The translations under genes were made by a program, and so were the position numbers. Shown here piece by piece: positions 5,817-26,148 of a stretch of DNA of 26,149 nt. Position 1 is the first letter of the stretch. Each line of letters opens with the position of its first letter. Source of the stretch: Holophagaceae bacterium UBA1801 (GTDB lineage Bacteria > Acidobacteriota > Holophagae > Holophagales > Holophagaceae); the NCBI GenBank assembly GCA_002319925.1, contig DCFP01000094.1, forward strand, positions 13,839 to 39,987, in the 5' to 3' direction. Below the pieces are notes generated by a model, which searched no databases, had not been told where the DNA came from, and saw nothing but the letters and a program-made list of their open reading frames with translations.

Positions 5817-5837
5817 GCGTCCCTGATTAGAATGAAA

Positions 5838-5867
5838 GCGCCGGAGTTGATCCGGCGCTTTTCCTTT
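5838..5867 (+). terminator. Rho-independent terminator of the flotillin gene
   Basis: Perfect 7-bp GC stem gcgccgg/ccggcgc around a 7-nt loop agttgat, followed by ttttccttt, 22 nt after the flotillin stop codon. Confidence 0.6.
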
Positions 5868-5879
5868 GCAGGCGTGAAG

Positions 5880-6347
5880 ATGACCGAATCCGCTGAAGCC
5901 CTTTGGCGCCGCTATCTCGAAAGCCTGGGTGAGAGTGAGGACACCACATCGAGGACGTACACCGCCTGGCATTTCTGCGACAACGAAAAGGACGCCGATG
6001 AATTGGCGGAACTCGTGTGTGCAGGCCAGAAACGGGCTACGGCCAGTGCCTTGTGGGTCTACGAGCGAGAAAAGCAGCCTCTCCCGCAGATGGGTGATCT
6101 CAGTGTGATCCTGGACTGGAAAGGCGAGGCACGTTGCATCATCCAGACGACGCGCATCGATATCCTCCCCTTCGATGAGGTCTCCACCGAGTTCGCCTGG
6201 ACGGAAGGAGAAGGGGACCGCTCATTGGCCCACTGGCGAGAAGGCCATCAGCGCTACTTCACGAGGGAACTGGAAGGCATAGGAATGGCCTTCGCTCAGC
6301 ACATACCGGTAGTTTGCGAGCGCTTCGAAGTCGTGCTCCTCGCTTGA
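5880..6347 (+). CDS. ASCH (PUA-like) domain protein
   Basis: YTAWHFCDNEKDADELAELVCAGQKRATASALW matches the ASCH-domain N-terminal signature. I chose the start at ATG 5880 (MTESAEALW) rather than 5832, because the 5832 start would place the flotillin terminator hairpin inside the coding region. Confidence 0.55.
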   Translation: MTESAEALWRRYLESLGESEDTTSRTYTAWHFCDNEKDADELAELVCAGQKRATASALWVYEREKQPLPQMGDLSVILDWKGEARCIIQTTRIDILPFDEVSTEFAWTEGEGDRSLAHWREGHQRYFTRELEGIGMAFAQHIPVVCERFEVVLLA

Positions 6348-6387
6348 TGCTGGACCGCGAATCCCGAATCAGGAAAAGCATCCCATT

Positions 6388-6410
6388 CGCACAAGTGCGG
6401 AGCACTTTTC
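6388..6410. terminator. Weak hairpin plus T-tract in the convergent gap between ASCH and ltaE
   Basis: Palindrome cgcacaagtgcg (4-bp stem, 4-nt loop) followed by gagcacTTTT on the + strand. The stem is short, so this is marginal. Confidence 0.2.
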
Positions 6411-6444
6411 GCATCTTTCGCGGTTCGAATTTCAGAACGCAGTC

Positions 6445-7497
6445 TCAGATCATCGGCCGATCGCCTTCCCAGGTGATCAGCATCCGTTCCACCAGGGGCT
6501 CCATGCGCGCTAGGGCCTCGTCCACATCCCTTTCCGTGAGATCCCGGTGCGTGATGAATCTGAGGGCACTGCCCACGGGAAGCACCCGCACGCCTGCATC
6601 TTCCAGGGATTGCCTGGCGAGGTTCGCATCCACCACGGGGGCGAGCACGATGTTCGTCTCAGGCAGTTCCACGTTGAGGCCGAAGCTGCGAAGGCCCTCC
6701 GCGAGGCGTTTCGCCTTATTGTGATCTTCGGAAATCCGTGGCAGGTAATCCAGTGCCACGAGGCCCGCTGCGGCGACCACACCGCCTTGGCGTACGCCTC
6801 CGCCCAGCATCTTGCGGGTTCTGCGGGCGGCCTGGATGAAGTCCTTCGAGCCCGCGAGCACGGAGCCCATGGGTGCGCCGAGGCCCTTGCTGAGGCAGAC
6901 ACTCACGGAATCCGCGCCGGAGGCGAGAGCGGGCAGCGACTCGTCGAGGGCGGCAGCTGCATGCCAGAGCCGCGCGCCGTCCAGATGCACCTTGAGGCCG
7001 CGCTCGTGGGCGATGTCCGTGAGCTCCCGTGTCTCCTGGGTCGACAGGCAGATGCCACCGGCAAAGTTGTGCGTGTTTTCCAGGCAGAGCAGGGATGTGC
7101 GCAGAACGTAATAGGGACCGGCGCTGCCGATGGCCTTCCAGAGCTGCAGGGGCGAGCAGATGCCCGGGCCCACGTCCCAGCTCAAAGCTTCGGGCATGCC
7201 GCCCGCGAGCCAGGCTCCCGTGCCGAGCTCAGCGCTGAGCACGTGAGCCTGGGCGGGCGCCAGGAACCGGTCTCCCCGCTGCAGGTGCAGCATCAGCGCG
7301 ATGAGGTTGGCCATGCAGCCCGTGGGTGTCCAGAGTCCCGCCTCTTTGCCCAGGAGCTCCGCCACCCGGCGTTCCAGGGCGTCCATGGTGGGATCACGTT
7401 CGAGCACATCGTCGCCGACGGTTGCGGCGGCCATGGCGGCACGCATTTCCGGGGAGGGTTTCGTGACGGTGTCGGATCGGAAATCGAGCTGTCGCAT
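6445..7497 (-). CDS. ltaE: Low-specificity L-threonine aldolase (beta-eliminating lyase family, PLP-dependent)
   Basis: N-terminal MRQLDFRSDTVTKP and the internal CLSKGLGAPMGS PLP-lysine region are both characteristic of threonine aldolases. The start is set at the ATG at 7497 (MRQLDF). The ORF extends in frame to 7566 with no sequence support. Confidence 0.75.
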   Translation of the reverse strand: MRQLDFRSDTVTKPSPEMRAAMAAATVGDDVLERDPTMDALERRVAELLGKEAGLWTPTGCMANLIALMLHLQRGDRFLAPAQAHVLSAELGTGAWLAGGMPEALSWDVGPGICSPLQLWKAIGSAGPYYVLRTSLLCLENTHNFAGGICLSTQETRELTDIAHERGLKVHLDGARLWHAAAALDESLPALASGADSVSVCLSKGLGAPMGSVLAGSKDFIQAARRTRKMLGGGVRQGGVVAAAGLVALDYLPRISEDHNKAKRLAEGLRSFGLNVELPETNIVLAPVVDANLARQSLEDAGVRVLPVGSALRFITHRDLTERDVDEALARMEPLVERMLITWEGDRPMI

Positions 7498-14408: not shown

Positions 14409-15302
14409 TCATGGTCCCGGCTGGATCGATCTCCGGACGTGTTCGAGAAAAGTCCTTTCGGCGTTTCCCAATTGCCTTCGCGGGTTCCACACGAGATGGG
14501 TGGCGAACTGGATCTCAGGGCCCTCCCAAGGGAGGGAAATGAGCCTTCCGGCGCGCAGCTCTTCCTCCACCGCCATCCGGGGCAAGGGCGCGATGCCGAG
14601 CCCCGCTTCAACACAACGCTTGATGGTCTCGACGCTCTGGAATTCCAGGCTCTGGCCAGGGTGCGCATCGGCGGCGATGAGCTGCCGCTCGAACTGATTG
14701 CGGTAGCTGCAGCCGAGGGCCTTGAGCAGCACCGACTCTCTCAGGAGGTCGTGGGCCGAGACACTTCGCGCCTTGGCCAGCCGGTGCGAAGGCGAGGCCA
14801 GGATCAGGATTTGTTCGTCCCTCAGCTTCTCCACGGCTAGCGTTTTGGAAGGAAAGGATTCCTCCAGGATGAAGGCCAGATCCACGACTCCTTCGAGCAC
14901 CTGACGCTTGAAATCCCGGACGAAGCCGGGAAAGAACTGCAGGCGCACATTGGGACATTGCTCCCTGAAGCCCATGAGGACGGGAGGCAGGAGATAGGTG
15001 CAGACCGTTTCCGGGGCCGTGAAGCGCAGGGTGCCGACACCCGCTCCATCCTCGGCCGAGAACGACTTGGCTTCCTCGACCAGGGCGAGGATGCGCTCCG
15101 CGTAGACCAGTAAACTCTCGCAGGGCTTGGCGAGCTCCAGGTGGTTCCCGACCCGGTTGAAGAGCAGGTAACCCAGGGACTCCTCCAGGTTCTTGATCTG
15201 GGTCGTCACGCTGGACTGAGCGTAGCCCAGGGATTCGGCTGCCCGGCTGAAGCTCAGCATGCGTGCGGCGGTGCTGAACGTGGACAGGGTGCGGATTTCC
15301 AT
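14409..15302 (-). CDS. LysR-family transcriptional regulator
   Basis: N-terminal wHTH MEIRTLSTFSTAARMLSFSRAAESLGYAQSSVTTQIKNLEESLG, followed by a LysR substrate-binding domain. Divergent from the MIO-lyase gene. Confidence 0.8.
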   Translation of the reverse strand: MEIRTLSTFSTAARMLSFSRAAESLGYAQSSVTTQIKNLEESLGYLLFNRVGNHLELAKPCESLLVYAERILALVEEAKSFSAEDGAGVGTLRFTAPETVCTYLLPPVLMGFREQCPNVRLQFFPGFVRDFKRQVLEGVVDLAFILEESFPSKTLAVEKLRDEQILILASPSHRLAKARSVSAHDLLRESVLLKALGCSYRNQFERQLIAADAHPGQSLEFQSVETIKRCVEAGLGIAPLPRMAVEEELRAGRLISLPWEGPEIQFATHLVWNPRRQLGNAERTFLEHVRRSIQPGP

Positions 15303-15384
15303 GGGACTAACCTCCGCCTTGCCTCCAATCCCTTTGCGCTCAACGCGACTCCCTCCGATTACATGGACGCGCCCCCAGTAGCAA

Positions 15385-15450
15385 ACAATTCGATTCCAGA
15401 TATCAAAACGATTCGCTTGTTCGATCCTCGATCCCGGATGACATTGGGAT
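15385..15450. promoter_or_regulatory. Candidate operator: four CGATYC direct repeats in the LysR / MIO-lyase divergent intergenic region
   Basis: cgattc appears at ~15391 and ~15419, and cgatcc twice at ~15433-15446, with a gatatc palindrome between the first two. They lie in the 219-bp divergent promoter region. Confidence 0.3.
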
Positions 15451-15521
15451 CATGGGCTGGGCTCTCTCGAAGCCCCGGTCTGAAAGAATCAAAGTTGGTG
15501 AATGAAATCTGGAGGCTGATC

Positions 15522-17150
15522 ATGCAGACCATTTCGATCGACGGCTTTTCCCTCACGCCGGAACTGGTTCTCCGGGTTGCCAGGCCTGAGCAGCCGGTGC
15601 AGGTGGTTCTGGCGCCCAGCGCGCGCAAGGCCCTGCAGGAGACTAGCGCGTTCATCGAGCGGACCTGGATGCACGACGAGGCGCCCCTCATGTACGGCTT
15701 CAACACAGGCGTGGGCCTGCTCAAGGACACCCGCGTAAAGGTCGAGCACATCGACCTCTTCCAGACCCAGCTTATCAATGCCCATGCGGCCGGGCTCGGC
15801 GAGCCCTTTCCCGAGGATGTCTGCCGGGCGGTGATGCTCCTGCGGGCGAACGCTTTGGCGAGCAATTTTTCCGGGGCCAGCGCCGACCTGCTGGATCGCC
15901 TGTTGGCATTCCTGAATGCCGGAATCCACCCGGTCATGCCGCAGAAGGGTTCGGTGGGAGCTTCTGGTGATCTCGCGCCCCTGGCCTATCTGGGAGCGGC
16001 CCTGGTGGGCTTCGAGGAGGCCGAGGTGATCTACCAGGGGCGGCGCATGTCCGCCCCCGAGGCGATCCGGGCGGCGGGCCTCTCCCCCGTCGTTTTCGAA
16101 CAGAAGGCCAAGGAAGCCTCGGCCATGATCAACGGATCTACGGTCTCCCTGGGGGTCGCTGTACTGTCCGCCTGGGATGCGCGCCACCTGCTGATGGACG
16201 CCTGCATTTCACTGGGGTTGACCCTCGAGGCCTTGCGGGCGGATCGCACGGCCTTCGATTCCCGTGTCCACAAGGCTCGCCCCCACAGAGGCCAGATCAA
16301 GACTGCGGATATCATTCGCAGGCTGCTCGAGGGTTCCACTCGCACCAGCCACGAGGCCCGCGCCGTCAAGCTGCCGGAGGAGCTCCGGCGCGCGGACCTG
16401 CCCTACACGCCCCGCATCCAGGACGTCTATTCCCTGCGCTGCTCGCCCCAGGTCTACGGCCCGGTCTTCGATGCCCTCGACCACATCGATGGCATCCTGG
16501 CGACGGAAATGAACTCCGCCACGGACAACCCGCTGATCTTTCCGAAGGAAGAAGGCGGTTTCGAGATCATGTCGGGCGGCAATTTCCACGGCCAGTACCT
16601 GGCCCAGGCCATGGACCTGATGGCCATGGCCATCGCTGATCTGGGCAGCATCTGCGAGCGGCGCATCGCGCGGCTCATCGATCCCTCGATGTCCTGGGGC
16701 CTGCCCCGCAACCTGATGTCCGGCGTTCCCGGCGTCAACACCGGCTACACGGTGGTGCAGTGTTCCATGAGCGCCCTCGTGATGGAGAACCGCACCCTCT
16801 GCATGCCCGGCAGCGTGGACAGCATCCCCGCCAAGGGCAACAGCGAGGACCACGTCTCCAACTCCACCTGGTGCGCCCGCAAGGCGTCCACGGTGATCGC
16901 CAATGTGCAGTACATCGTCGGCGTGGAGATGCTGCTGGCATCCCAGGGCATCACGATGACCGCGGCTCACCTCGAATCTTTCGTGCTCGGCAAGGGCATC
17001 CAGGCCGCCTACGACGAAGTGCGCAAACAGATTCCTGCTTGCCTGGAAGGCGACCGCTGGTACCACCGCGACATCGAAGTGGCGCGATCCTTCGTGCTGA
17101 CCGGGTCTGTGCGGAACGCTGTGGAATCGGTGCTAGGCAAGCTGGGATAG
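15522..17150 (+). CDS. MIO-dependent ammonia-lyase/aminomutase family enzyme (histidine ammonia-lyase-like)
   Basis: GGAGG 6 nt upstream of the ATG at 15522. The MIO-forming Ala-Ser-Gly triad sits in GSVGASGDLAPLAYL. The YGFNTGVG motif has an NTG as in HAL (PAL/TAL carry TTG). The length is 542 aa. Substrate specificity is not resolvable by eye. Confidence 0.8.
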   Translation: MQTISIDGFSLTPELVLRVARPEQPVQVVLAPSARKALQETSAFIERTWMHDEAPLMYGFNTGVGLLKDTRVKVEHIDLFQTQLINAHAAGLGEPFPEDVCRAVMLLRANALASNFSGASADLLDRLLAFLNAGIHPVMPQKGSVGASGDLAPLAYLGAALVGFEEAEVIYQGRRMSAPEAIRAAGLSPVVFEQKAKEASAMINGSTVSLGVAVLSAWDARHLLMDACISLGLTLEALRADRTAFDSRVHKARPHRGQIKTADIIRRLLEGSTRTSHEARAVKLPEELRRADLPYTPRIQDVYSLRCSPQVYGPVFDALDHIDGILATEMNSATDNPLIFPKEEGGFEIMSGGNFHGQYLAQAMDLMAMAIADLGSICERRIARLIDPSMSWGLPRNLMSGVPGVNTGYTVVQCSMSALVMENRTLCMPGSVDSIPAKGNSEDHVSNSTWCARKASTVIANVQYIVGVEMLLASQGITMTAAHLESFVLGKGIQAAYDEVRKQIPACLEGDRWYHRDIEVARSFVLTGSVRNAVESVLGKLG

Positions 17151-17383
17151 GTAGAGAGCGGACCCTCTAAAGCCCTTTCATCGCCAGGTTTGCAGCCTTA
17201 CCCCCCATGACCACTCCATGGGTGGCCCAGGATCTGTTTGACCAAATCGGAACGGGGCCGTGAAGAAGCTTCTGGGTCGCAGGTCGCTGGGACCCAACTG
17301 GTAAATGGACCTGTCCATGATCATCCACCACTGGGATGTACCACCACACCGCCCCGATCAACATGCTTTACTGGCTTCACTAG

Positions 17384-17746
17384 GCGCTGCGTCTGGTGCT
17401 TGATGAAGGGAAAAACAAGGTCTTTGCTCGCCACCTGGAATGTCGTGCACGCTTGGTCGACGGCTTGCAAGCTCTAGGCCTGAAGATGCTGGTGGAGCCC
17501 GCCTCGCGGCTGCCCATGCTCAACTCCGTGGTCATCCCGGAGGGAGTCGATGACGCGAAAGTCCACAGAGCCCTGCGCATCAAACACAACATCGAAATCG
17601 GTGGCGGGCTTGGTTCTCTGGCCGGAAAGATCTGGAGGATCGGGACGATGGGGCACACCGCGTGGCCGGAGAATGTCGACCGGATCTTGGCGGCGCTGCG
17701 CAGCAAACTCATGCATGGCCAAGAAGCTCTGCTTCGTAGCGCATGA
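17384..17746 (+). pseudogene. Class-V aminotransferase (serine-pyruvate / alanine-glyoxylate type) C-terminal fragment, 5'-truncated remnant
   Basis: The frame opens right after an in-frame TAG at 17381-17383. The translation VFARHLECRARLVDGLQALGLKMLVEPASRLPMLNSVVIPEGVDDAKVHRALRIKHNIEIGGGLGSLAGKIWRIGTMGH matches only the C-terminal small domain of AGXT/SPT-type aminotransferases. No frame in 17151-17383 encodes the N-terminal PLP domain. Confidence 0.6.
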
Positions 17747-17835
17747 TTCGGGTTGGGACTCGTCGAGAATCAGGAAGCGGTTCTCGATTCGTGGGGTCGT
17801 GGTGATGAGCACTTCCCTCTGAAGACCAAGCAATA

Positions 17836-18120
17836 TCAATCGACCCGGCAGCAGACCTCGCCCTGGGAATAGGTCTGGCACGCCAGGCGCTGGTTCTGTC
17901 TGGCCTTGAGGATCCGCAGAATCCGCGCTTCGACGGTTCCCACCGGGGAGAGCTGGTCCTGGCCCTCTTCGACGGTGACGAGGCAGGTCCCACAGCGGGC
18001 GTGGCCCCTGCAGCGCTGGGTGAGGGCGATCCCGGCCTTGTTGGCTGCCACCAGCAGGCTGTTCTCCTTCCCCAGTTCCACTTCCACCGCGACCTTGCCC
18101 CTGAATGTGACCTTGTACAT
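17836..18120 (-). CDS. Small 2Fe-2S ferredoxin-like protein
   Basis: 94-aa protein MYKVTFRGKVAVEVELGKENSLLVAANKAGIAL..CRGHARCGTC...LACQT with a plant/adrenodoxin-type Cys pattern (C-x5-C-x2-C...C) in a beta-grasp-like sequence. GAGG lies 4 nt upstream of the ATG at 18120. The track's longer 165-aa version has a low-complexity Gly/Arg/Ser N-terminus that I judge untranslated. Confidence 0.55.
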   Translation of the reverse strand: MYKVTFRGKVAVEVELGKENSLLVAANKAGIALTQRCRGHARCGTCLVTVEEGQDQLSPVGTVEARILRILKARQNQRLACQTYSQGEVCCRVD

Positions 18121-18161
18121 GCATCCTCGCGAAGCCGGCCTGCTGGCCGCACCTGTCAGTC

Positions 18162-18217
18162 TAGTGTAGCCCGCTGGAAATACGTGAATCATCCCTAGCT
18201 CTTTACCAGGGCTACAC
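18162..18217. promoter_or_regulatory. Inverted repeat tagtgtagccc / gggctacac(gtg) with a 36-nt spacer in the ferredoxin / SRPBCC divergent region
   Basis: The 9-bp arms gtgtagccc / gggctacac are perfect. Further GC-rich palindromes follow (cccccaggggg; cctctg-cggccgc-cagagg) within the 296-bp divergent intergenic region. Confidence 0.3.
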
Positions 18218-18416
18218 GTGGCAGGGGTCTGGAGGCACGGCAGTGCCCCCAGGGGGTGACAGGCCGTGGAGGCGCTGCCTCTGCGGCCGCCAGAGGGGCC
18301 TCGCCCCGATGGAGATGCACCCCGCCCGACCACTCAACGTTCGATGTAATCGACCCAGGCGGGGTGCATCAGGCCATGAATATGTAAACCCCAAACGATC
18401 GGGTAAACTGGTGAGT

Positions 18417-18833
18417 ATGTGGCACACCGAGCACACCCTTGAGACCACCACGGAGCCGGAGGCCATCTGGCGCCGCTACGAGGACGTCTGTGGCTGGCCG
18501 GACTGGGACGAGGGTCTGGAATGGGCGCGGCTGCTGGGTCCACTCAAGGTGGGCAGCGCGGGCAGCCTGAAGCGCAAGGGCGGGCTCCGTCAGCGATTCA
18601 TGGTGGTGGAGGTCAATGAGGGCCGGGGATTCACGTGCATCGGCCGGAAGCTGCTGACCCACATGCGCCTCGTCCACAGCGTCGAGCCCAGTTCCCTGGG
18701 CAGCCGCGTCACCCACCGGGTGGAAGTGCAGGGTCCCATGGCCTGGTGGCTGCAGCTCACCATGGCCCGCCGGATCCGCCAGACCTTGGCCCCCGCCGTA
18801 CGGAAACTGGCACGCATCGCCGGAAGACACTGA
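18417..18833 (+). CDS. SRPBCC superfamily (polyketide cyclase/dehydrase-like, START/Bet v1 fold) protein
   Basis: 138 aa, MWHTEHTLETTTEPEAIWRRYEDVCGWPDWDEGLEWARLLGPLKVGSAGS.... The N-terminal E.IW..Y.D...WP.W pattern is typical of Polyketide_cyc2/SRPBCC ligand-binding proteins. Confidence 0.55.
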   Translation: MWHTEHTLETTTEPEAIWRRYEDVCGWPDWDEGLEWARLLGPLKVGSAGSLKRKGGLRQRFMVVEVNEGRGFTCIGRKLLTHMRLVHSVEPSSLGSRVTHRVEVQGPMAWWLQLTMARRIRQTLAPAVRKLARIAGRH

Positions 18834-18834
18834 A

Positions 18835-19188
18835 TTGGCGGATGCGCAATCGACACCTGAAGTCGTGGTCCAGCGGCAGCTGGAGGCCTACAACCGTCAC
18901 GACCTGGACGCCTTCTTGGCCTGCTACGGCGAGGACGCCCGGGTCTACCGGATCCCGAATCCAGACCCAACGCTTGCGGGCCGTATTCGGATCGGGGTGC
19001 ACTATGCGGCCCATCGGTTCAATGTCCCTGAGTTGCGCGCCGAAATCCTGAGCCGGATGAAGCTCGGCAACAAGGTCATCGATCACGAACGGGTGACTGG
19101 TCTTCCCGATAGTCCGGTGGAAGTGGTTGCCATCTATGAAGTCGTGGATGGCCTGATCCAGAACGTCTGGTTCGTCCAGCCCCACTGA
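18835..19188 (+). CDS. SnoaL/NTF2-like fold protein
   Basis: 117 aa. VVQRQLEAYNRHDLDAFLACYGEDARVY is the classic SnoaL-like N-terminus. The TTG start sits 1 nt after the SRPBCC stop, so the two are translationally coupled. Confidence 0.5.
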   Translation: MADAQSTPEVVVQRQLEAYNRHDLDAFLACYGEDARVYRIPNPDPTLAGRIRIGVHYAAHRFNVPELRAEILSRMKLGNKVIDHERVTGLPDSPVEVVAIYEVVDGLIQNVWFVQPH

Positions 19189-19208
19189 TTCCGTATCCGG
19201 AGCCGATC

Positions 19209-19805
19209 ATGAAGTCCATCCGAAGCGCGATGCTGACCTCGATTCTTCTTGTGGGCACGGTCATCGCCCCAAGTTTCGCCCAGGAAATCCAGGCCAAGCC
19301 CCAGCCCTGCGACACCTGCTTGCCGGGCATCATCAACTTCGCCAAGGTGTCCGATGCGCTATGGCGCGGCGCCCAGCCCACGGTGGAGGGTTTCCAGAAC
19401 CTGGAGAAGATGGGCGTGAAGACCATCGTGAGCTTCCGCCACGACCACGACGATCTGGCCCTGATGAAGGGCACCCACCTGAAGTACCTGCGGATCTCCT
19501 CCCGCGCCTATCGTCCGACCAAAGCGAACGTGACCCACTTCCTCAAAGTGATGGAAGATCCGGCCAACTGGCCCGTCTTCGTCCATTGCGCCCAGGGCCG
19601 CGACCGCACAGGCTACAACACGGCGGCCTACCGCATGGTTTACCAGGGCTGGCAGGCCGAAGATGCGATCCAGGAAATGCACACCTTCCACTTCAACCGC
19701 ATCTGGTTCTGGGATCCCCACTTCGTCCGGGAGTTGAATTCGGGAGAACTCAAGGAACGGCTGAAGACGGAGCCGCAGCCTGTGTTCCAGAGCCCCGCGC
19801 CGTGA
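19209..19805 (+). CDS. Secreted protein-tyrosine/dual-specificity phosphatase family protein
   Basis: Signal peptide MKSIRSAMLTSILLVGTVIAPSFA|QE. Catalytic P-loop VHCAQGRDRTGY (CX5R[S/T]). Confidence 0.7.
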   Translation: MKSIRSAMLTSILLVGTVIAPSFAQEIQAKPQPCDTCLPGIINFAKVSDALWRGAQPTVEGFQNLEKMGVKTIVSFRHDHDDLALMKGTHLKYLRISSRAYRPTKANVTHFLKVMEDPANWPVFVHCAQGRDRTGYNTAAYRMVYQGWQAEDAIQEMHTFHFNRIWFWDPHFVRELNSGELKERLKTEPQPVFQSPAP

Positions 19806-20626
19806 CATCCAGTCGCAGGATTCTCTTCGTCAGCCTGACCGTGGTTCTGGGGATGATCGCCCTGGCAGGGGGCGGCGCGCTCGCTTACTATCTGCGCCAC
19901 AAAGCCACGGAAGTCAGCGCCGATGCCGGAGCGGATGTCTCCGAGGCCGATGCCGGTCCCGTGGGCCAGGTGTTTCCGGGCTTGAAGAGCGAAGAACTCC
20001 TGCCCAAGTTCAAGCCATCCATCGAGGGCGTGGATTGGGAACTCATGCTGGCCAAGCCTTTCCAGCAGTCCGGGAAAACCTATGCAGTGGCGGTCTTCGC
20101 CACCTACGATCTGGACGACCAGGGCAAACGGGTGGATGCACATGCCAACGGCGCAAACCTCTGCCCGGCCCTCTTCGTGCAGGAATCGAGCGGCGGGTGG
20201 CGCTGCCTGGAATTCAAGGACGACTTCACCCGCGCGGGTTCCTGGGGGAACTCGGGGGACGTGGAACTGGTCAGGTTGGGACCCGATCGATGGGGTCTTT
20301 CCGTGACCACTGGCTTCACGAATCAGGGCGTGACATCGTCCAGCGCCAGCTACTACGAGTTCGGACGCCTCCCTGAAACGGGTGCCACTCCGACCCTGCA
20401 ACTCAAGGATGTCCTGGATCTCACCAACTCCCTCGACAATGGCGGCGTGGTTGACGATGGGGACGCGGCCGAGAGTTGGGGAACGAAGACAGCTTTCCTG
20501 CCCAAGGTGGTGAACGAGCATTTCGTCATTTCCGTCCAGCCCGATGGTGAGCTACCCGAAGGTAGCGAAGCGCCTGTGGGAACATACGAATTCTCGCCAG
20601 CTGCTGGGATCTACAAGAAGCAATAG
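19802..20626 (+). CDS. Membrane-anchored hypothetical protein with an extracytoplasmic domain
   Basis: The GTG start overlaps the phosphatase stop (ccGTGA). An N-terminal TM anchor RRILFVSLTVVLGMIALAGGGALAYYL precedes a ~230-aa Gly/Asp/Ser-rich domain with no recognisable motif. Coding-like G/C at third codon positions. Confidence 0.45.
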   Translation: MTSSRRILFVSLTVVLGMIALAGGGALAYYLRHKATEVSADAGADVSEADAGPVGQVFPGLKSEELLPKFKPSIEGVDWELMLAKPFQQSGKTYAVAVFATYDLDDQGKRVDAHANGANLCPALFVQESSGGWRCLEFKDDFTRAGSWGNSGDVELVRLGPDRWGLSVTTGFTNQGVTSSSASYYEFGRLPETGATPTLQLKDVLDLTNSLDNGGVVDDGDAAESWGTKTAFLPKVVNEHFVISVQPDGELPEGSEAPVGTYEFSPAAGIYKKQ

Positions 20627-20633
20627 CGGATTG

Positions 20634-22364
20634 TCAGCGCCAGGTTGCGAAGGTCTTGCGGAATTCCTGCAACACTTCCTCCGCCGCCCTGAGTCCATGA
20701 TCCTGGGCCTCTTCGAAGAGGGCAAAGCCTGATAAGTCCGAGTGGGCGAAGTGGATGTTCTGGAAGGGCACTCGCGCTTTTTCGAGTACATCGCTCCACA
20801 TGAAGTGCGGTCGTGGGCGGATCATGGCGTGGGCCCAGCGCATGACGTCGATGCGCGAGATGCATGATTCGAGATCCGGATGGGCGATGCGCAGATCGTC
20901 CAGGATGAAGCGGACGCAATCGCGCCAAGAGACGCTGTAGAGCCGTTCCCAGTCGGAGCGGATATCCGCGCCCGCCAGGGCATGGTAGAAGGTCCAGACC
21001 GTGGGGCCGTGATCGCGCAGGCTCTGGTGGGTATCCACTACGTAGCCCAGGCCCTTGCCGTCCCGGATGACGTTGTCCCAGGCCATGGAGAAAAAATGTT
21101 CCTTGGGCCGTTCGCGCAGCGTCAGGTTGGACACGATCCAGGAGCTGGGCAGGAATTCCTGGAAGAAGGCTCGGCCCCGGGCGCGGGCCAATTCGGGAAT
21201 CACGCGGCCCGCCATGATCATGGAGCCCGCGAAGATCACGCGCTTGGCTGCGAAGCCGAGGGCGCACCGCTGGACGGCATCCCAGGCCAGGACCTTCACC
21301 TTGCCGTTCTCAGTGGTGATCCGCGTGACGGCGATGCCGGTGCGCACCTGCTCCTTGCAGCGCTCGTAGAGATGATTTACCAGGAAGCCGTTCCCCTCGG
21401 GCCAGGTGAGCACCGGGCGGGTCTCTTCCTTCGGATGGGATTTGCGCGCGGCGAAGTAATAGATGCCAGCCCAGGCGCTGGTGGTCTCGGGCCGCGCGCC
21501 GTAGTCGTCGCGGCAGGCGTAGTCCATGAGCCAACGGAGCCGCTTGGAGTCGAGGCCTCGCGCGTCGAGCCAGTCCTTGAAACTCATGGTGTCCAGCGCG
21601 CGCACCTCTGCGTCATCGGAACCCTTGGAACGGGGCACGGCAAAGGCCCTGTGGCCTTTGGCATCCCGCCAGAGCACCCATCGATCCACTTCGTCGAAGA
21701 AGGCCTTGTACTGACGGATGTCCTCGGGGCTTTCTCCGGCATGGAGATACAGGCCTTCCCACCACTGTCCCACGGCGAAGATGCGCTCCTCGGGACTCCG
21801 CACCAGGTGCTCCTCACCGAAGATGGGCTCGTCCTTGGCGTCGTAGCCCTCGATGACACCCGCTTCCTCCAGCAGCCGGATCATGGGCACGGTCTCGCGG
21901 GTGGGCGCCACCACATAGTGGGCAGCCAGCGGATAGGCGCTGACGCCGTTCCGCCCCGAGCGCGCCGTGCCGCCCACACCGGATTCCAATTCCAGCAGTG
22001 TGAAGTCCTCGAAGCCCGCGCCCTTCAAGCGCCAGGCCGCGGAAAGGCCCGCGATGCCGCCGCCTACGATGACCACATCGATGGGTTCGAAGGATGAAGG
22101 AGCGGGCAGATCGCCATCCCGCGCGGCATGACCGAGATCGACGGAAGGTCCGATCAGATCGCCGTCGAAGGTGAATTCTACTTTCTGGCTTTTGCAGGCA
22201 AGGTCCACGAGGGGAATCGCCGCGGAGGCAGCAAGGAAGGTTCGGCGCTTCACGTCAGGACCACCGGTTCCATTCACGGGGCCCCCTCCGTGATCGCAAG
22301 CCAACGGCGCAGCGGGAGCGGGAGCAAAGCACAGTGCGCTTTGCGATCGGGGGGTAGTCCACAT
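20634..22364 (-). CDS. Tat-signal FAD-dependent oxidoreductase (amine-oxidase / FAD-NAD(P)-binding superfamily)
   Basis: Twin-arginine motif KRRTFLAASAAI. Rossmann dinucleotide fingerprint DVVIVGGGIAGLSAAWRL. The ATG at 22364 lies 3 nt after the upstream gene's stop (TGAaccATG). An alternative GTG start at 22253 would put the RR motif at the N-terminus. Confidence 0.75.
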   Translation of the reverse strand: MWTTPRSQSALCFAPAPAAPLACDHGGGPVNGTGGPDVKRRTFLAASAAIPLVDLACKSQKVEFTFDGDLIGPSVDLGHAARDGDLPAPSSFEPIDVVIVGGGIAGLSAAWRLKGAGFEDFTLLELESGVGGTARSGRNGVSAYPLAAHYVVAPTRETVPMIRLLEEAGVIEGYDAKDEPIFGEEHLVRSPEERIFAVGQWWEGLYLHAGESPEDIRQYKAFFDEVDRWVLWRDAKGHRAFAVPRSKGSDDAEVRALDTMSFKDWLDARGLDSKRLRWLMDYACRDDYGARPETTSAWAGIYYFAARKSHPKEETRPVLTWPEGNGFLVNHLYERCKEQVRTGIAVTRITTENGKVKVLAWDAVQRCALGFAAKRVIFAGSMIMAGRVIPELARARGRAFFQEFLPSSWIVSNLTLRERPKEHFFSMAWDNVIRDGKGLGYVVDTHQSLRDHGPTVWTFYHALAGADIRSDWERLYSVSWRDCVRFILDDLRIAHPDLESCISRIDVMRWAHAMIRPRPHFMWSDVLEKARVPFQNIHFAHSDLSGFALFEEAQDHGLRAAEEVLQEFRKTFATWR

Positions 22365-22367
22365 GGT

Positions 22368-23912
22368 TCATGACCAGCGGTTCCATTCTTCTGCGTAGAG
22401 GTGCACCAGCACTTGGTTATCCAGGCGGTTCACCTCCACGGGCACGCGGTCCATGTCCTTGGGGAAGACGAACATGGATGCCATGGACTCGTCGGATAGG
22501 TGGCGCAGGTTCGGCAGAGTATGTCGTGGAATGTCGAAGGGCGCAGGGCTCGCGAGGACGAAGCCCCAGACGCTGAAGGAAGGCACGGCGAGGTGGTAGG
22601 GCCGTGCCTGGAAGCCCGCGGCTTCCACGGTGGCATCGATGCACCAGAAGGACTTCCTCGCCATGAGTGGCGAGGTGCACTGGATGGAGGCAACGCCATC
22701 CGGCGCGAGCTGACGCTTCAGCAGTTTGTAGAACCGCGTGGTGAACAGTTTTCCGACGGCGTAGGTGTTGGGATCCGGAAAGTCCACAATGGCGATATCG
22801 AAAGGCGGTTCGCCTTTTCGTTCCGCGATCCAAACCATGGCATCCGCGTTGATGACCTTCACGCGCGGGTCCAGCAGGGACCCGCCATTGAGTTCCCGCA
22901 GCAGCGGCATCTTCGTGGCCAGCTCTGTCACCAGTGGATCCAAATCCACCAGCACCACCTCCTTCACTTCGGGGTGCTTCAGGATTTCTCTCACGGCCAA
23001 GCCATCGCCACCGCCACACACGAGCACGCGCTGAGCGTGGGGTTTCACGGCGAAGGCCGGATGCACGAGGGCTTCGTGGTAACGGTATTCGTCCGCCGAC
23101 GAGAACTGCAGGTTGCCGTTGAGGAAGAGCTGGAAGCTGCCGCGGCCGCGGGTGAGCACGATGCGCTGGTACGGGGAATCCTTCGCGTAGACGATCTCGT
23201 CCGTGAAGATCTCTTCTTCCGCTGCGAGGGTGAAGCGATTCGCGCCGATCACGCCTGCGGCGAGGAATACAAGGACGACGGCGCTGCGGAGGCGCAGCCC
23301 GAAGGTCGGCCCGATCTGGGATTGCAGCAGGTACGTGGACCAGAGGCCCACGATGGCGTTCAGCATGCCGAAGGCGAGACTCGTGCGCACAAGGCCCAGC
23401 TTGGGCATGAGCAGCAGCGGGAAGAGCAGGGAGGCGGCCAGGGCACCGATGTAGTCGAGGGTCAGGACCTGGGCGATGAGATCCTTGAAGCGCACCTGGT
23501 GGCGCAGGATCCGCATGAGCAGCGGGATTTCCAGCCCCACCAGCACGCCGATGGCGACGACGATCCCGTAGAGGGAAGGGCGGAAGGCGTGGGTGCGCGC
23601 GAAGGAGAGGAACAGGATCGGCGCGGAAAAGCCGCCCACCAGCGCCACGGCCAGTTCCAGGTCCACGAAGCGTCGGGCGAGTCCCTTGTGGATGTGCTTG
23701 GAGAGGTAGGAGCCCAGGCCCATGGCGCTGAGGTAGACGCCGATCACCGTGGAGAACTGCATGACGGAATCGCCCAGCAGGTAGCTGGCCAAGGTGCCCG
23801 CCACCAGCTCGTAGACCAGGCCGCAGGCGGCGATGATAAAGACGCTGATGAAGAGGAGGGAGGCTTTCAGGGGCTGGCTGGAGCGCGTGTCCAGGACTTC
23901 CAGATCATCCAT
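22368..23912 (-). CDS. Membrane-fused polyamine aminopropyltransferase (spermidine/spermine synthase with a ~220-aa N-terminal polytopic TM domain)
   Basis: About seven predicted TM helices are followed by a SpeE catalytic core: VLVCGGGDGLAVREILKHPEVKEVVLVDLDP (the GGGDGG..RE motif), IVDFPDP and VKVINADAM. The start overlaps the upstream DUF350-like gene by 8 nt. Confidence 0.8.
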   Translation of the reverse strand: MDDLEVLDTRSSQPLKASLLFISVFIIAACGLVYELVAGTLASYLLGDSVMQFSTVIGVYLSAMGLGSYLSKHIHKGLARRFVDLELAVALVGGFSAPILFLSFARTHAFRPSLYGIVVAIGVLVGLEIPLLMRILRHQVRFKDLIAQVLTLDYIGALAASLLFPLLLMPKLGLVRTSLAFGMLNAIVGLWSTYLLQSQIGPTFGLRLRSAVVLVFLAAGVIGANRFTLAAEEEIFTDEIVYAKDSPYQRIVLTRGRGSFQLFLNGNLQFSSADEYRYHEALVHPAFAVKPHAQRVLVCGGGDGLAVREILKHPEVKEVVLVDLDPLVTELATKMPLLRELNGGSLLDPRVKVINADAMVWIAERKGEPPFDIAIVDFPDPNTYAVGKLFTTRFYKLLKRQLAPDGVASIQCTSPLMARKSFWCIDATVEAAGFQARPYHLAVPSFSVWGFVLASPAPFDIPRHTLPNLRHLSDESMASMFVFPKDMDRVPVEVNRLDNQVLVHLYAEEWNRWS

Positions 23913-24126
23913 GGATGGAGGCGGCGATGATCAGGGAGATACCCAGGATCAGGCTTCCCAGGACGATGCCAAGGGCGATGTTCTGGTCCACCTCCATCTC
24001 CTTGCGCAGCGAGAAGGGCAGGATCTTCACCATGATCGCCCACACGATGCCGAGGATGGCGAGACCCAGGATGCAGAATATCGAGGCCGTCAACAGCGGC
24101 CGCCAGAGCGTGGTCATTAGATCCAT
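23905..24126 (-). CDS. DUF350-like small two-TM membrane protein
   Basis: 73 aa, MDLMTTLWRPLLTASIFCILGLAILGIVWAIMVKILPF..EMEVDQNIALGIVLGSLILGISLIIAASIHG. It has two TM helices and an N-x-A-x-G-I motif. AGGAG lies 8 nt upstream. Its position directly 5' of the membrane SpeE matches the DUF350 context I recall from other genomes. The track's longer 132-aa version is a low-complexity extension. Confidence 0.5.
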   Translation of the reverse strand: MDLMTTLWRPLLTASIFCILGLAILGIVWAIMVKILPFSLRKEMEVDQNIALGIVLGSLILGISLIIAASIHG

Positions 24127-24178
24127 CACGTGTCTCCTCTGAATCCGGAAGGGAGAAAATACGGTTTGTGAATCGCGG

Positions 24179-24358
24179 CTACTTTCCGCCGCGGAAACCG
24201 TGGTTGTGCAGGAAGGTTCGGTAGCCGCCGGGAGTCTGCCGGACGCTGGGCGGGAGTTCCATGCGCTGGTGATCGCCGAAGAACTCGTGGCCGAGGAAGG
24301 CATTGGTGCCCAGGAATCCGAAGCTTCCCGCCAGGACGAGCAAATAGAAGGTGCGCAT
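24179..24358 (-). CDS. Unannotated 59-aa small protein: hydrophobic N-terminus (signal or TM) followed by a His-rich tail
   Basis: MRTFYLLVLAGSFGFLGTNAFLGHEFFGDHQRMELPPSVRQTPGGYRTFLHNHGFRGGK. The ATG overlaps the DUF4178 stop codon as TGATG (translational coupling). About 49 of 59 codons end in G or C, consistent with coding in this genome. The tail after the hydrophobic segment carries 5 His in 36 residues. Confidence 0.45.
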   Translation of the reverse strand: MRTFYLLVLAGSFGFLGTNAFLGHEFFGDHQRMELPPSVRQTPGGYRTFLHNHGFRGGK

Positions 24359-26148
24359 CAGTCGTCGTCTCCGGAGGAACTGCTGGAAAACGAGCTCTCC
24401 TGCCAGCGGCGGTTCTCGAAGGCCATGGCCCTGATCCAGGCCAGGACGGGAACCACGAGGATGCCGAGGGCCGCGAGAAAACCATAAAGCCATCGCGTGA
24501 TGCCGCTGCGCAGCTCCACGCTGAAGGTGGAGACCGGCGGGAGCTTGCCGTCCCACACGGGCGCGATACGCAGGACGTACCTGCCTGGAGGAACCGACGA
24601 GAGATACACCGTCTCCGAGGTGTTGCCCTCGGTCCAGGCTCCGTCTTCATCAGAGCCGTGGTAGTAGCTGGAGGCCACCTCGAACAGCTCAGTGGCACCC
24701 GTGGTCTCGCTCACCAGGGCACCCTCGATGCCGATCCAGTTGTTGTCCACAGGGGCGTTGAGGGTAACGGAGAAATTCTTGTGGCCATCCGCGATCTCGA
24801 AGGGTTCCGTGAAGAAGACTGGTTCGAGGGGATTCTCGGGAGCCGCGGCCGGAGGCGGAGTATCCGTTGCAGGGGCGGGTGCTGGCGCTGTTGCTGGCGC
24901 CTGACCCTGCGCAAGGGCCTTGAGGGCGGGCACCCGCTCGAAGATGTTGTAATCCTCTTTGTAGAGCAGCTTCTCGCGATGGGTGGCCACTTCCCAGGCC
25001 AGTGCGGTCACGAGCAGCGCGAAGGCCGCCACCATCCAGAGGCCCATCTGGCGCGCGGTCTTCCAGTGGGGATTGGGCTGATGGGGTGCGATGCCCTGGG
25101 GCGATGGCGGCGAGCCTTTGAGCTTGAAGGCCTTCCAGATCTCGCTGCCCTGCAGGTAGGTGCTCTTCGACCAGTTCACTTCCTCGCCACCGCCGGGTTG
25201 GCGCTGAATTTCCTCCGCGAGGCTGATGGGAGCTTTGACGTACTCCGTGACCTGGACCCGCTCACCCTGTTCCACCTTCCAGTAGAATTCGCCGTAGACG
25301 CCCTCCACCACGGCCTCCGTGTGCTGGAAGGCACGGTAGTGTTCGCCCTTGTATTCGATGGTCCGCCCACCTGCGCCGGTCCGGCGCAGATCGCCGAGAT
25401 TCATCGCTTCGGCCAGGCTCCAGTGGCCATCGCTTTCCACGAGCCACTTGAACCCGTGATGGGAATCGAGCATCAGGTACTCGCCCCAGGGATACCGTGT
25501 GCCCTCCACCGTACACGAGCGCAGCAGGTACCCGATGCACGTGAGCGGAATCCCGTTGAGTACGCCATCCGTGCCGAGGGGGATGAACATGCGCGGATCG
25601 GGTTGTTTCAGGGATTTCAGGTAAGTGAGGCGGCCCTCGGAGGCATCCAGCAGACTGCCGCAGGAGGCGCAGACCACATGCTGGGCCTGATCGGGTGCCC
25701 GCAAGGGCAGAGGGGCTGCGCATTTCGGGCAGGCCAAGCCCTGGGTCTTCAGTTTCGGCACCGGTGGCGGCCCGCTGGGGGGAAGCTTCAACTTCAAATC
25801 CTCGAAGGGAATTTCCCGGCCCACGAAGAAAAGTGGTGATTCCTCGGAGTAGTCGAGGGTCGCGAAGGCGCCGTTGGGTCCATTGAGATCCGCAAAGCGG
25901 TAGGATCCGCCAAGATCCACGGCCCAAGGGATTTCGCCCTCGGCCGAGGCGAAGGTTCCCTGACTCACCTCGGCGACCATCCAGAGGCCTTGATCGCCCA
26001 GGTTCACGGTGCCGCCTGCCAGCAGGCCTTCCGGTGCAGGAATGGCAGCCGTCACGGCGTGGGCAAAGGTCAGGTAGAAGCGGCCCTGGGCCTCCGCCAG
26101 CCAGCCCCAGCGGCCATCGTCGAGGGCCAGGTACCACTCGTCCCACAC
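24358..26148 (-). CDS. DUF4178-like two-domain membrane protein with a zinc-ribbon, 5' partial (N-terminus lies beyond the window end)
   Basis: The ORF is open to the window edge. CxxC...CxxC zinc ribbon CPKCAAPLPL..(14)..CASCGSLLD. Repeated ~130-aa modules are separated by a TM helix (LWMVAAFALLVTALAW) and a Pro/Ala-rich linker. A second TM helix sits near the C-terminus, followed by an acidic Ser-rich tail SSFSSSSSGDDD. The domain family is assigned from memory of the architecture and gene neighbourhood, not from a search. Confidence 0.55.
   Translation of the reverse strand: MWDEWYLALDDGRWGWLAEAQGRFYLTFAHAVTAAIPAPEGLLAGGTVNLGDQGLWMVAEVSQGTFASAEGEIPWAVDLGGSYRFADLNGPNGAFATLDYSEESPLFFVGREIPFEDLKLKLPPSGPPPVPKLKTQGLACPKCAAPLPLRAPDQAQHVVCASCGSLLDASEGRLTYLKSLKQPDPRMFIPLGTDGVLNGIPLTCIGYLLRSCTVEGTRYPWGEYLMLDSHHGFKWLVESDGHWSLAEAMNLGDLRRTGAGGRTIEYKGEHYRAFQHTEAVVEGVYGEFYWKVEQGERVQVTEYVKAPISLAEEIQRQPGGGEEVNWSKSTYLQGSEIWKAFKLKGSPPSPQGIAPHQPNPHWKTARQMGLWMVAAFALLVTALAWEVATHREKLLYKEDYNIFERVPALKALAQGQAPATAPAPAPATDTPPPAAAPENPLEPVFFTEPFEIADGHKNFSVTLNAPVDNNWIGIEGALVSETTGATELFEVASSYYHGSDEDGAWTEGNTSETVYLSSVPPGRYVLRIAPVWDGKLPPVSTFSVELRSGITRWLYGFLAALGILVVPVLAWIRAMAFENRRWQESSFSSSSSGDDD

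Follow-up and report, generated by a model that had tools for sequence, protein, structure and literature searches.

A putative envelope operon of a membrane-fused aminopropyltransferase-like enzyme and a predicted Tat-exported flavin oxidase, conserved from the Holophagaceae to other phyla

A 26,149-nucleotide stretch of the genome of Holophagaceae bacterium UBA1801 (Acidobacteriota; assembly GCA_002319925.1, contig DCFP01000094.1, positions 13,839 to 39,987), which we call the window, carries on its minus strand, from position 20634 to the right edge, five ORFs (open reading frames) head to tail. They encode a DUF4178 protein, a small membrane peptide, a DUF350 protein, a polyamine aminopropyltransferase-like enzyme fused to seven transmembrane (TM) helices (hereafter the SpeE fusion) and a flavin oxidase with a twin-arginine translocation (Tat) signal. 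We propose, with moderate confidence, that they form the core of a widespread operon that serves envelope-bound aminopropyl transfer and amine oxidation, as distinct from the housekeeping spermidine pathway. A first-pass annotation of this DNA had placed the five co-oriented genes at the same coordinates and had described them as a conserved, experimentally uncharacterised module tied to the envelope and to polyamine-type chemistry, a description which our cross-phylum censuses support.

Results

Conservation of the gene order

The SpeE-fusion family was collected by a search of 1.84 billion proteins, which gave 1,278 representative clusters (50% identity) at E<=1e-30. Eighty-three cluster representatives were aligned and the alignment was used to fetch 80 genome loci (51-75% identity); for a reverse census, 80 metagenome loci were fetched by an alignment of the oxidase. 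Six-frame ORFs were scanned against hidden Markov models (HMMs) built for the analysis, and the counts refer to loci with enough flanking DNA. The oxidase lies directly downstream of SpeE in 56 of 68 SpeE-anchored genome loci and, conversely, SpeE lies upstream of the oxidase in 61 of 61 oxidase-anchored metagenome loci, adjacent in 58 and about 0.9 kb off in three. DUF350 was detected upstream of SpeE in 68/77 SpeE-anchored loci and in 48/50 oxidase-anchored loci, DUF4178 in 66/75 and 36/37, respectively, and DUF4178, DUF350 and the oxidase are all present in 49/65 SpeE-anchored loci. The same succession, from DUF4178 through the small ORF, DUF350 and SpeE to the oxidase, is found in 49 of the 65 judgeable genome loci, and an independent contig with its own gene calls and Pfam annotation reads AdoMet_dc, DUF4178, a 60-aa (amino acid) ORF, DUF350, Spermine_synth and Amino_oxidase, in this order.

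The arrangement is far beyond chance and, since SpeE is found upstream in every judgeable oxidase-anchored locus, the oxidase subfamily is dedicated to the operon. Within the Acidobacteriota, the loci come from Holophagae, Pyrinomonadaceae, Thermoanaerobaculia, Bryobacterales, Terriglobales and Vicinamibacteria; the other hosts belong to the Myxococcota, Planctomycetota, Beta- and Gammaproteobacteria (Pseudomonadota), Leptospiraceae, Elusimicrobia and Gemmatimonadales, which amounts to about seven phyla overall. The first-pass annotation had named a DUF4178, DUF350 and membrane-SpeE triad from distant phyla; this holds and extends to the oxidase, and the order is conserved in both census directions, contrary to a chance adjacency.

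Some loci depart from this layout. In the complete genome of Geothrix sp. PMB-07 (L001, CP132333, 730-8208), DUF4178 and the small ORF have given way to an island that carries a phage integrase, a resolvase and two reverse transcriptases (RVT_1), and a PDDEXK_3 gene is inserted between DUF350 and SpeE; this operon is disrupted by mobile DNA, with DUF350, SpeE and the oxidase intact. The SpeE loci without partner genes (L015, L041 and L060) show neither PspA nor any other recurring context. One of them, L041 from a metagenome-assembled genome (MAG) of Candidatus Contendobacter, has a SpeE fusion without DUF350, DUF4178 and oxidase, which is followed directly (5194-7044) by a gene for a 616-aa protein with a PNP_UDP_1 domain (nucleoside phosphorylase / methylthioadenosine nucleosidase superfamily) that could handle the methylthioadenosine by-product. 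Two MAG contigs labelled 'uncultured Clostridia' and 'Candidatus Saccharimonadales' (L017 and L073) have a layout and peptide nearly identical to those of Acidobacteriota, which suggests mis-binning and not true hosts.

Gene junctions and boundaries

Pfam and NCBIfam scans of the five proteins assigned a family to four of them, and the matches to DUF4178, DUF350, Spermine_synth and Amino_oxidase/NAD_binding_8 expected from the first reading all hold. The junctions described there were likewise recovered for the first half of the unit: DUF4178 and the small ORF meet in TGATG, where the ATG of the peptide overlaps the DUF4178 stop codon, and DUF350 and SpeE share an 8-nt (nucleotide) overlap, ATGGATGA. 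Between the small ORF and DUF350 lies a spacer of 52 nt with a GGAG ribosome-binding site. The 3-nt gap reported between SpeE and the oxidase had to be corrected, as the true spacer is 90 nt long (22278-22367); the apparent junction arose because the longest ORF was taken, the spacer being open in frame with the oxidase. The oxidase start is placed at GTG 22277 because 24 aligned homologues all begin 1-10 residues ahead of the RR motif, the gene caller of the parent contig described below starts the 547-aa product at the same GTG, and a GGAGG lies 7-9 nt upstream. Two nearby relatives (L002 and L003) have a gap of 7-10 nt at this place.

A consensus scan of the operon region for internal signals, which in the first-pass annotation would have pointed to separate transcription, gave 0 promoter-like sites and 2 terminator-like sites, against 3.1 of the latter expected. 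An identical SpeE protein was found on a 50-kb JGI (Joint Genome Institute) metagenome contig, the parent contig, which extends the locus. On this contig, DUF4178 is preceded by a divergent MFS (major facilitator superfamily) transporter and then by unrelated genes, and the genes downstream of the oxidase are convergent on it, which sets the boundaries of the five-gene unit. From gene order and sequence, the five genes probably form an operon.

The membrane-fused aminopropyltransferase

The SpeE fusion (514 aa; 22368-23912, minus strand) matches Spermine_synth (PF01564) with 124.9 bits and, over residues 11-513, the NCBIfam model NF002956/PRK03612, 'polyamine aminopropyltransferase', with 658.5 bits (cutoff 472). 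It stays under the cutoffs of the TIGR00417 speE equivalog (138.8 vs 249.55 bits) and of PRK00811 (164 vs 260). Against NF037959, 'fused MFS/spermidine synthase', it reaches 44.7 bits, and it may represent a sister subfamily of these proteins with 7 instead of 12 TM helices.

Its catalytic domain (residues 236-514; 22371-23207) carries the GGGDG motif at residue 300 (23001-23015), whose acidic residue marks the binding of decarboxylated S-adenosylmethionine (AdoMet), and the catalytic Asp motif DFPDP at residue 377 (22770-22784). Among the 83 diverse homologues, Q249, E280, D325 and D357 do not vary, and D303, D377 and D380 are kept in at least 90%. Of the solved structures, Thermus thermophilus SpeE comes nearest to the domain (1UIR; E=3e-36, 32% identity, root mean square deviation 2.3 A). 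The acidic residue of GxG(D/E)G separates users of decarboxylated AdoMet from methyltransferases such as the fungal N-terminal-histidine methyltransferase NHMT (PMC10349129), and the non-acidic residue of the NHMT type is not what is found in the GGGDG of the window, with its conserved D303. Because GGGDG and DFPDP are kept and the acidic residue marks the use of decarboxylated AdoMet, the domain looks like a working aminopropyltransferase, for which decarboxylated AdoMet is very probably the donor.

The N-terminal TM domain (23244-23873) has seven helices, both by hydropathy averaged over the 83 homologues and in an AlphaFold2 (AF2) model with a predicted local distance difference test (pLDDT) of 95, where the helices span residues 14-46, 49-73, 78-106, 110-136, 142-195 (two spans) and 204-222. 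The first-pass description of a GGGDG aminopropyltransferase domain fused to about seven TM helices was therefore accurate. The charges of the loops alternate: the mean number of K+R over the 83 homologues is 2.1 for the N-terminus, 2.4 for loop 2-3, 3.1 for loop 4-5 and 3.4 for loop 6-7, and 0.17, 0.31 and 0.18 for loops 1-2, 3-4 and 5-6, respectively. By the positive-inside rule, this predicts a cytoplasmic N-terminus, which with seven spans would place the catalytic domain in the periplasm. If this is correct, the domain lies on the same side as the exported oxidase, which raises the question of how decarboxylated AdoMet gets there. A canonical SpeE is soluble and cytoplasmic; the window protein departs from this with its 7-TM domain and its predicted non-cytoplasmic catalytic domain. 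Domain fusions from which the topology could be settled were sought in longer members of the SpeE family, but these gave no additional Pfam domain, and none of the solved structures matching the SpeE fusion spans the 7-TM domain.

Three acidic residues within the membrane, E35, E128 and D153 in TM helices 1, 4 and 5, are at least 90% conserved among the 83 homologues (34-55% identity). Their conservation within the TM helices suggests that the membrane domain does more than anchor the enzyme, in that it binds or conducts a cation.

The Tat-signal oxidase

The last gene (20634-22277, minus strand; longest ORF to 22364) encodes a 547-aa protein that matches Amino_oxidase (PF01593) end to end with 53.2 bits (vs 19.8) and, in addition, NAD_binding_8 (PF13450). 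Its best named relatives are those of Holophaga and Geothrix. The N-terminus, KRRTFLAASAAIPLV, combines a twin-arginine motif with a hydrophobic stretch: the Tat-type signal (22194-22277) has its RR at 22242-22247 within KRRTFL, followed by the hydrophobic stretch and by Cys28 in DLAC (22194-22196). The Rossmann motif for flavin adenine dinucleotide (FAD), GGGIAG, lies at 22047-22064, so that both motifs noted in the first reading were found again. Of 57 Holophagae homologues, at least 90% keep the RR and all have the Cys 16 residues downstream (LAC), and RR-x-[FL]-[LIV] is kept in 58/63 oxidase loci from many phyla. The oxidase is very probably exported by Tat as a cofactor-containing protein, as had been suggested before; this is a prediction from the motif and its conservation. 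A lipobox-type Cys is present in 32/63 oxidase loci and is missing from the forms of Terriglobia and Bryobacterales. The oxidase may therefore be lipid-anchored in many lineages; for the window copy this is uncertain, given the Asp at -3 of its lipobox D-L-A-C versus [LVI][ASTVI][GAS]C.

An AF2 model of the oxidase (pLDDT 86, predicted template modelling score 0.88) found its best Foldseek matches at E 1e-23 to 1e-21, with TM scores (template modelling scores) of about 0.6 and 15-19% identity. They include the monoamine oxidases MAO A/B, a bacterial MAO crystallised with putrescine, Rhodococcus putrescine oxidase and Pseudomonas SpdH. In profile matches, the sequence similarity to solved enzymes is restricted to the FAD-binding segments. 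Judged by family profiles and modelled fold, the oxidase belongs to the flavin amine oxidase superfamily, in which it is a divergent member.

The membrane partners

The small ORF (24179-24358, minus strand) encodes 59 aa without a match in the Pfam and NCBIfam scans. An N-terminal hydrophobic helix is followed by the conserved tail PPSVRQTPGGYRTFLHNHGFRGGK and by a C-terminal Lys. Thirty homologues of 59-60 aa, Holophaga foetida among them, share 64-93% identity; their hydrophobic N-terminus is variable and the tail PPSVRQTPGGYRTFLHNHGFRGGK almost invariant. In the other phyla, DUF4178 and DUF350 are almost always separated by an ORF of the same build (46-67 aa), with a basic N-terminus, a single hydrophobic helix, a tail rich in Gly/Ser/Arg/Tyr and a C-terminal Lys. 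A strict script detected such an equivalent in at least 61/69 loci, and several of the remaining loci show one by eye; of 11,940 other small ORFs in these loci, just 5 satisfy the same criteria. The C-terminus is K in 61/61 and GGK in 51/61 of these peptides, and the remaining tail diverges. On this conservation the small ORF is a real gene, as the first-pass annotation had it. Its label as His-rich did not stand: His makes up 4/59 residues of the window peptide and 3.8% of the tails of the 61 orthologues, and the hallmark of the family is the C-terminal Lys, usually in GGK.

The gene at the same position of a Shewanella operon has been annotated as 'LipoSIG+Ctha_1186+Low-comp' (PMC11237479), and the myxobacterial peptide of L007 carries the lipobox AFSGC. 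Both suggest an external tail; the charge balance is ambiguous, with a net charge of +3.4 for the tail in the 61 orthologues.

The DUF350 (YjfL-family) protein of 73 aa (23905-24126, minus strand; PF03994, 42.3 bits vs gathering score 26) aligns with profile positions 2-66 of 133 only. It has two TM helices by hydropathy and half the length of the Pfam model.

The DUF4178-family gene (24358-26148, minus strand, 5' end beyond the window) matches PF13785 in two stretches with 80.6 bits (gathering score 25). Its full product on the parent contig has 678 aa, 596 of the 678 codons being inside the window, and a full-length orthologue (L002) consists of a Zn-ribbon, DUF4178, a second Zn-ribbon and DUF4178, a TM helix, a Pro/Ala linker with a beta-rich segment, another TM helix and an acidic tail. 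Within the window, we located the CxxC pairs of a Zn-ribbon, CPKC...CASC, at 25660-25731, where Zn_ribbon_LysW matches are faint, and the second DUF4178 domain, which this Zn-ribbon precedes, at 25150-25575. Hydropathy places TM1 at 24985-25041 and TM2 at 24433-24489, with a predicted periplasmic segment of about 165 aa (24490-24984), made up of the Pro/Ala linker and the beta-rich part, between them. K/R residues border the cytoplasmic sides of both TM helices, and from these flanking charges we infer that the N-terminal domains are cytoplasmic and the segment of about 165 aa periplasmic. With Zn-ribbon/DUF4178 domains on one side and a periplasmic domain on the other, the protein could link both sides of the membrane. 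A search of solved structures with this protein gave no relative. Bryobacterales, Terriglobia and some other lineages have a split DUF4178, encoded by two adjacent genes for about 210 and 450 aa; such loci include L025, L028, L043, L044, L046, L057 and L067-L076, most of which also have genes for an SPFH-Zn-ribbon protein and for an AdoMet decarboxylase (AdoMetDC).

Accessory and neighbouring genes

Recurrent neighbours were found by de novo clustering of adjacent ORFs. A class 1b AdoMetDC gene (PF02675) lies immediately upstream of DUF4178 in 32/63 genome loci and upstream in 20/34 oxidase-anchored loci. A gene for an SPFH/Band_7_1 protein with a Zn ribbon (YdjI-like) is found upstream of the AdoMetDC position in 20/60 loci. 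Directly downstream of the oxidase, 18/54 loci encode a polytopic membrane protein of about 366 aa, which is absent from the window and gave no match in Pfam and NCBIfam scans. This protein has several conserved His (for example L050 13201-14304, L038 13177-14277 and L002 13156-14646). The sole Holophagales locus with AdoMetDC is that of the MAG L021 (18357-18707), where the gene lies 7 kb downstream of SpeE and scores 103 bits, against 175-200, on the profile of operon-linked AdoMetDC; it may be a housekeeping paralogue. The named matches of a search with this copy are from Holophagales and Thermoanaerobaculia.

A PspA or LiaI gene, which the first-pass annotation thought might lie just past the right edge, is not there: the parent contig shows the divergent MFS transporter and unrelated genes. 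Neither the window nor the 10 kb upstream of it on the parent contig holds a PspA or CesT/Tir-like chaperone gene, and such genes do not recur among the neighbour clusters of the 80 loci. The flotillin at 3765-5816, 15 kb from the operon, had been considered as a partner as well. It is a Band_7 protein encoded beside lgt and gives no match to the SPFH family (Band_7_1 with a Zn ribbon) that a third of the relatives encode directly ahead of the operon; we reject a functional link for want of evidence. A role as anti-phage defence system is also rejected; PADLOC returned generic fold-level matches only, namely mad2 on the methyltransferase fold (62 bits) and a desaturase model on the Rossmann motif (23 bits), and none for the other three proteins.

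The DNA between the operon and the remaining window (14409-19200) holds a separate small gene cluster with a LysR regulator (14409-15302, minus strand), an aromatic amino-acid ammonia-lyase (15141-17150), a 2Fe-2S ferredoxin (about 17836-18333, minus strand), a Polyketide_cyc2 protein (18243-18833) and a SnoaL_2 protein seen on the parent contig, which may constitute a small aromatic or secondary-metabolite pathway. Two genes convergent on the oxidase follow at 19209-20626; they encode a secreted dual-specificity or tyrosine phosphatase-like protein (19209-19805) and a 274-aa protein without a family match.

Discussion

Our comparison shows the gene identities of a five-gene unit, its conserved catalytic motifs, its Tat motif and the conservation of the operon, and from these we infer the topology, the order of the reactions and the nature of the substrate. 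For envelope-bound aminopropyl transfer and amine oxidation, the steps might be as follows. The 7-TM-fused SpeE-like enzyme would use decarboxylated AdoMet, and an AdoMet decarboxylase of the same operon would supply this donor in about half of the relatives. At the surface of the membrane it would aminopropylate some amine that is not bulk putrescine, with its catalytic domain on the periplasmic side, to which the 7-TM domain would probably hand a cationic ligand, either the donor or the acceptor. The flavoprotein would fold with FAD in the cytoplasm, be exported by Tat and oxidise an amine on that side of the membrane, for which the aminopropylated product is the simplest candidate. The Lys-terminated peptide, DUF350 and the two-TM DUF4178 protein would act as fixed membrane subunits. 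The membrane-embedded polyamine synthesis proposed in the first-pass annotation stands in so far as the module is of polyamine type and envelope-linked; that it makes bulk spermidine or spermine is doubtful, as the positive-inside rule puts the catalytic domain outside the cytoplasm.

Several points weigh against this proposal. The periplasmic position of the catalytic domain has the positive-inside rule as its sole basis, and we know of neither a bacterial precedent for a periplasmic enzyme that depends on decarboxylated AdoMet nor an exporter for this donor. An AdoMet decarboxylase gene was found neither in the window nor within 10 kb on the parent contig, and the search with the L021 copy showed no Holophagaceae gene, Geothrix and Holophaga being absent among the best 120 matches. 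Protoporphyrinogen oxidase is also among the fold matches of the oxidase, whose substrate is not readable from sequence at 15-19% identity to characterised amine oxidases. The censuses cover the 80 nearest relatives, compared with 1,278 clusters in the family, and the forms of Mycobacterium and Shewanella lie outside this sample. Finally, the operon is defined here by gene order and sequence.

Operons of this kind have been described before. Ravi, Anantharaman, Aravind and Gennaro (mSystems 2024) reported operons with a 7-TM Spermine_synth, YjfL/DUF350, DUF4178, a small lipoprotein and a CesT-PspA pair (PMC11237479), and proposed that these systems monitor polyamines or 'aminopropylation of other substrates' (PMC11237479). 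The statement of the first reading that comparative genomics of Psp systems had flagged such neighbourhoods without a mechanism is borne out by that study (PMC11237479). Their operons, for example Shewanella oneidensis SO_3762-3767, share with the window the 7-TM-fused Spermine_synth, YjfL/DUF350 and DUF4178, and in both a small low-complexity protein with a signal is encoded immediately ahead of DUF350. In contrast to them, the window has no CesT/Tir-PspA pair, RHH (ribbon-helix-helix) regulator or DUF4247/DUF2617, its order differs, with DUF4178 first and the oxidase last, and its DUF4178 protein is of the 678-aa double-domain two-TM form. The yjfIJKLMC operon of Escherichia coli resembles the window in its DUF350 protein (YjfL) and in its context of polyamine chemistry and membrane stress (PMC11237479). 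However, YjfL is the full-length four-TM form, and its partners are a PspA homologue, an ATP-grasp ligase resembling glutathionylspermidine (GSP) synthetase, DUF1190 and DUF2491, without SpeE, DUF4178 or oxidase. A search of the accessible literature found no experimental paper on this cluster type. The type is already described, without a mechanism, and the window copy is a minimal member that lacks PspA and AdoMetDC.

Work by Li, Kurihara, Kim, Liang and Michael in 2019 is said to have described clusters of AdoMetDC, a membrane(MFS)-spermidine synthase (SpdSyn) fusion and DUF350. Bacteria with AdoMetDC and the membrane-SpdSyn fusion reportedly had no spermidine, the fusion reportedly failed to complement an E. 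coli speE mutant, and the enzyme is said to have been proposed to aminopropylate something other than putrescine. These clusters combine a membrane-fused SpdSyn-like protein, DUF350 and class 1b AdoMetDC, as do 32/63 of the relatives of the window, whereas the window copy has no AdoMetDC. With the triamine/agmatine aminopropyltransferase SpeE of Thermus thermophilus (1UIR, 3ANX), the window enzyme shares the GGG(D/E)G and D..DP motifs; the Thermus protein differs in being soluble, cytoplasmic, 314 aa long and without a TM domain, and its substrates are free polyamines or agmatine. A likeness in architecture links the SpeE fusion to the fungal NHMT (AN4663), a 7-TM N-terminal-histidine methyltransferase of lytic polysaccharide monooxygenases (LPMOs) that acts on secreted proteins in the endoplasmic reticulum (PMC10349129): an N-terminal 7-TM domain of about 215 aa is followed by a SpdSyn-fold domain. 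In NHMT, however, Ile replaces the acidic residue of GxG(D/E)G and methyl is transferred from AdoMet, whereas the window keeps the Asp. For the oxidase, SpdH of Pseudomonas aeruginosa (7D9F-J) and the putrescine oxidase of Rhodococcus (2YG3) share the MAO-like two-domain flavoprotein fold (Foldseek E ~1e-21, TM score ~0.6, 15-18% identity); both act on polyamines, and SpdH binds haem too.

The alternative that survives best, although we consider it rather unlikely, is a membrane spermidine or spermine synthase that faces the cytoplasm, paired with a periplasmic Tat polyamine oxidase that degrades or back-converts exported polyamines, and with DUF4178 as an envelope-stress scaffold. A bona fide SpdSyn fold with all decarboxylated-AdoMet motifs fits this view, as do the cytoplasmic location of decarboxylated AdoMet, the lack of a signal peptide in the operon-encoded AdoMetDC and the polyamine-acting enzymes among the best fold matches of the oxidase. 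Yet this orientation would put the K/R-rich loops (about 9 K+R) outside and the near-uncharged ones (0.66) inside, contrary to the positive-inside rule, and the SpeE fusion fails the TIGR00417 cutoff (138.8 vs 249.55). The reported absence of spermidine from bacteria with such a fusion, and its reported failure to complement an E. coli speE mutant, also speak against this view.

Somewhat more doubtful is the idea that the small peptide itself is the acceptor. Its C-terminal Lys would take the aminopropyl group and the oxidase would process the N6-aminopropyl-lysine, as a periplasmic modification that is hypusine-like or concerns a scaffold peptide. The Lys-terminated ORF between DUF4178 and DUF350 in at least 61/69 loci, with GGK in 51/61 and only 5/11,940 other small ORFs that fit the criteria, would suit such a role, and the lipoprotein annotation in Shewanella together with the L007 lipobox would place the tail outside. 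By analogy, NHMT is an example of a 7-TM enzyme with SpdSyn fold that is able to modify an amine/imidazole of a protein on the non-cytosolic side (PMC10349129). The net charge of +3.4, however, favours a cytoplasmic tail and leaves the orientation ambiguous, the operon encodes no protease or release enzyme, and the peptide could simply have a structural role, in which its C-terminal Lys would make contact with a partner protein or with lipids.

Improbable in our view is a modification of an envelope lipid or polymer, in which a membrane or wall amine, for example a phosphatidylethanolamine head group, an ornithine/lysine lipid or the Lys/diaminopimelate (DAP) of peptidoglycan, would be aminopropylated. 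The surface charge would thereby be altered under stress, and SPFH, DUF4178 and DUF350 would organise a membrane microdomain. The enzyme is membrane-embedded with conserved charged residues within the membrane, the SPFH-Zn-ribbon gene is co-operonic in 20/60 loci, and related operons are tied to PspA membrane-stress genes (PMC11237479); on the other hand, no lipid-metabolism gene is conserved in the operon, and the role of the oxidase is left unexplained. Chance adjacency of unrelated genes or separate transcription can practically be dismissed: the spacers of 90 nt before the oxidase and 52 nt before DUF350 would be compatible with it, but both censuses show the order to be conserved over about seven phyla, two junctions overlap, and internal promoter- or terminator-like signals are not above expectation.

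Envelope-bound aminopropyl transfer and amine oxidation, our preferred reading, can be extended to a chemistry that is periplasmic throughout, in which the 7-TM domain would bring decarboxylated AdoMet across the membrane and the Lys of the peptide would be aminopropylated and then oxidised by the Tat-exported flavoprotein. We regard this extended version as a long shot, slightly less probable than a peptide acceptor as such. If true, decarboxylated AdoMet would for the first time be found in use outside the cytoplasm of bacteria, and at least seven phyla would have a new hypusine-like polyamine modification carried by a peptide.

Compared with previous descriptions, our analysis adds the positive-inside bias that predicts a periplasmic catalytic domain, the conserved intramembrane acidic residues and the near-universal Lys-terminated peptide, whose role as acceptor is speculative. 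The substrate of membrane-fused SpdSyn-like enzymes has been a question in bacterial polyamine biology since 2019, which the locus described here does not answer and which the comparison of its relatives narrows. Cultivable bacteria with the same operon include Acidovorax, Corallococcus, Pyxidicoccus, Archangium and Holophaga foetida. Membrane-fused SpdSyn-like enzymes are very common and are encoded beside Psp and SPFH membrane-stress genes in many bacteria, pathogens included. For this family, the search is narrowed to a system with a dedicated oxidase, a probable donor, two catalytic domains that are both predicted to be periplasmic and a Lys-terminated peptide as a candidate acceptor.

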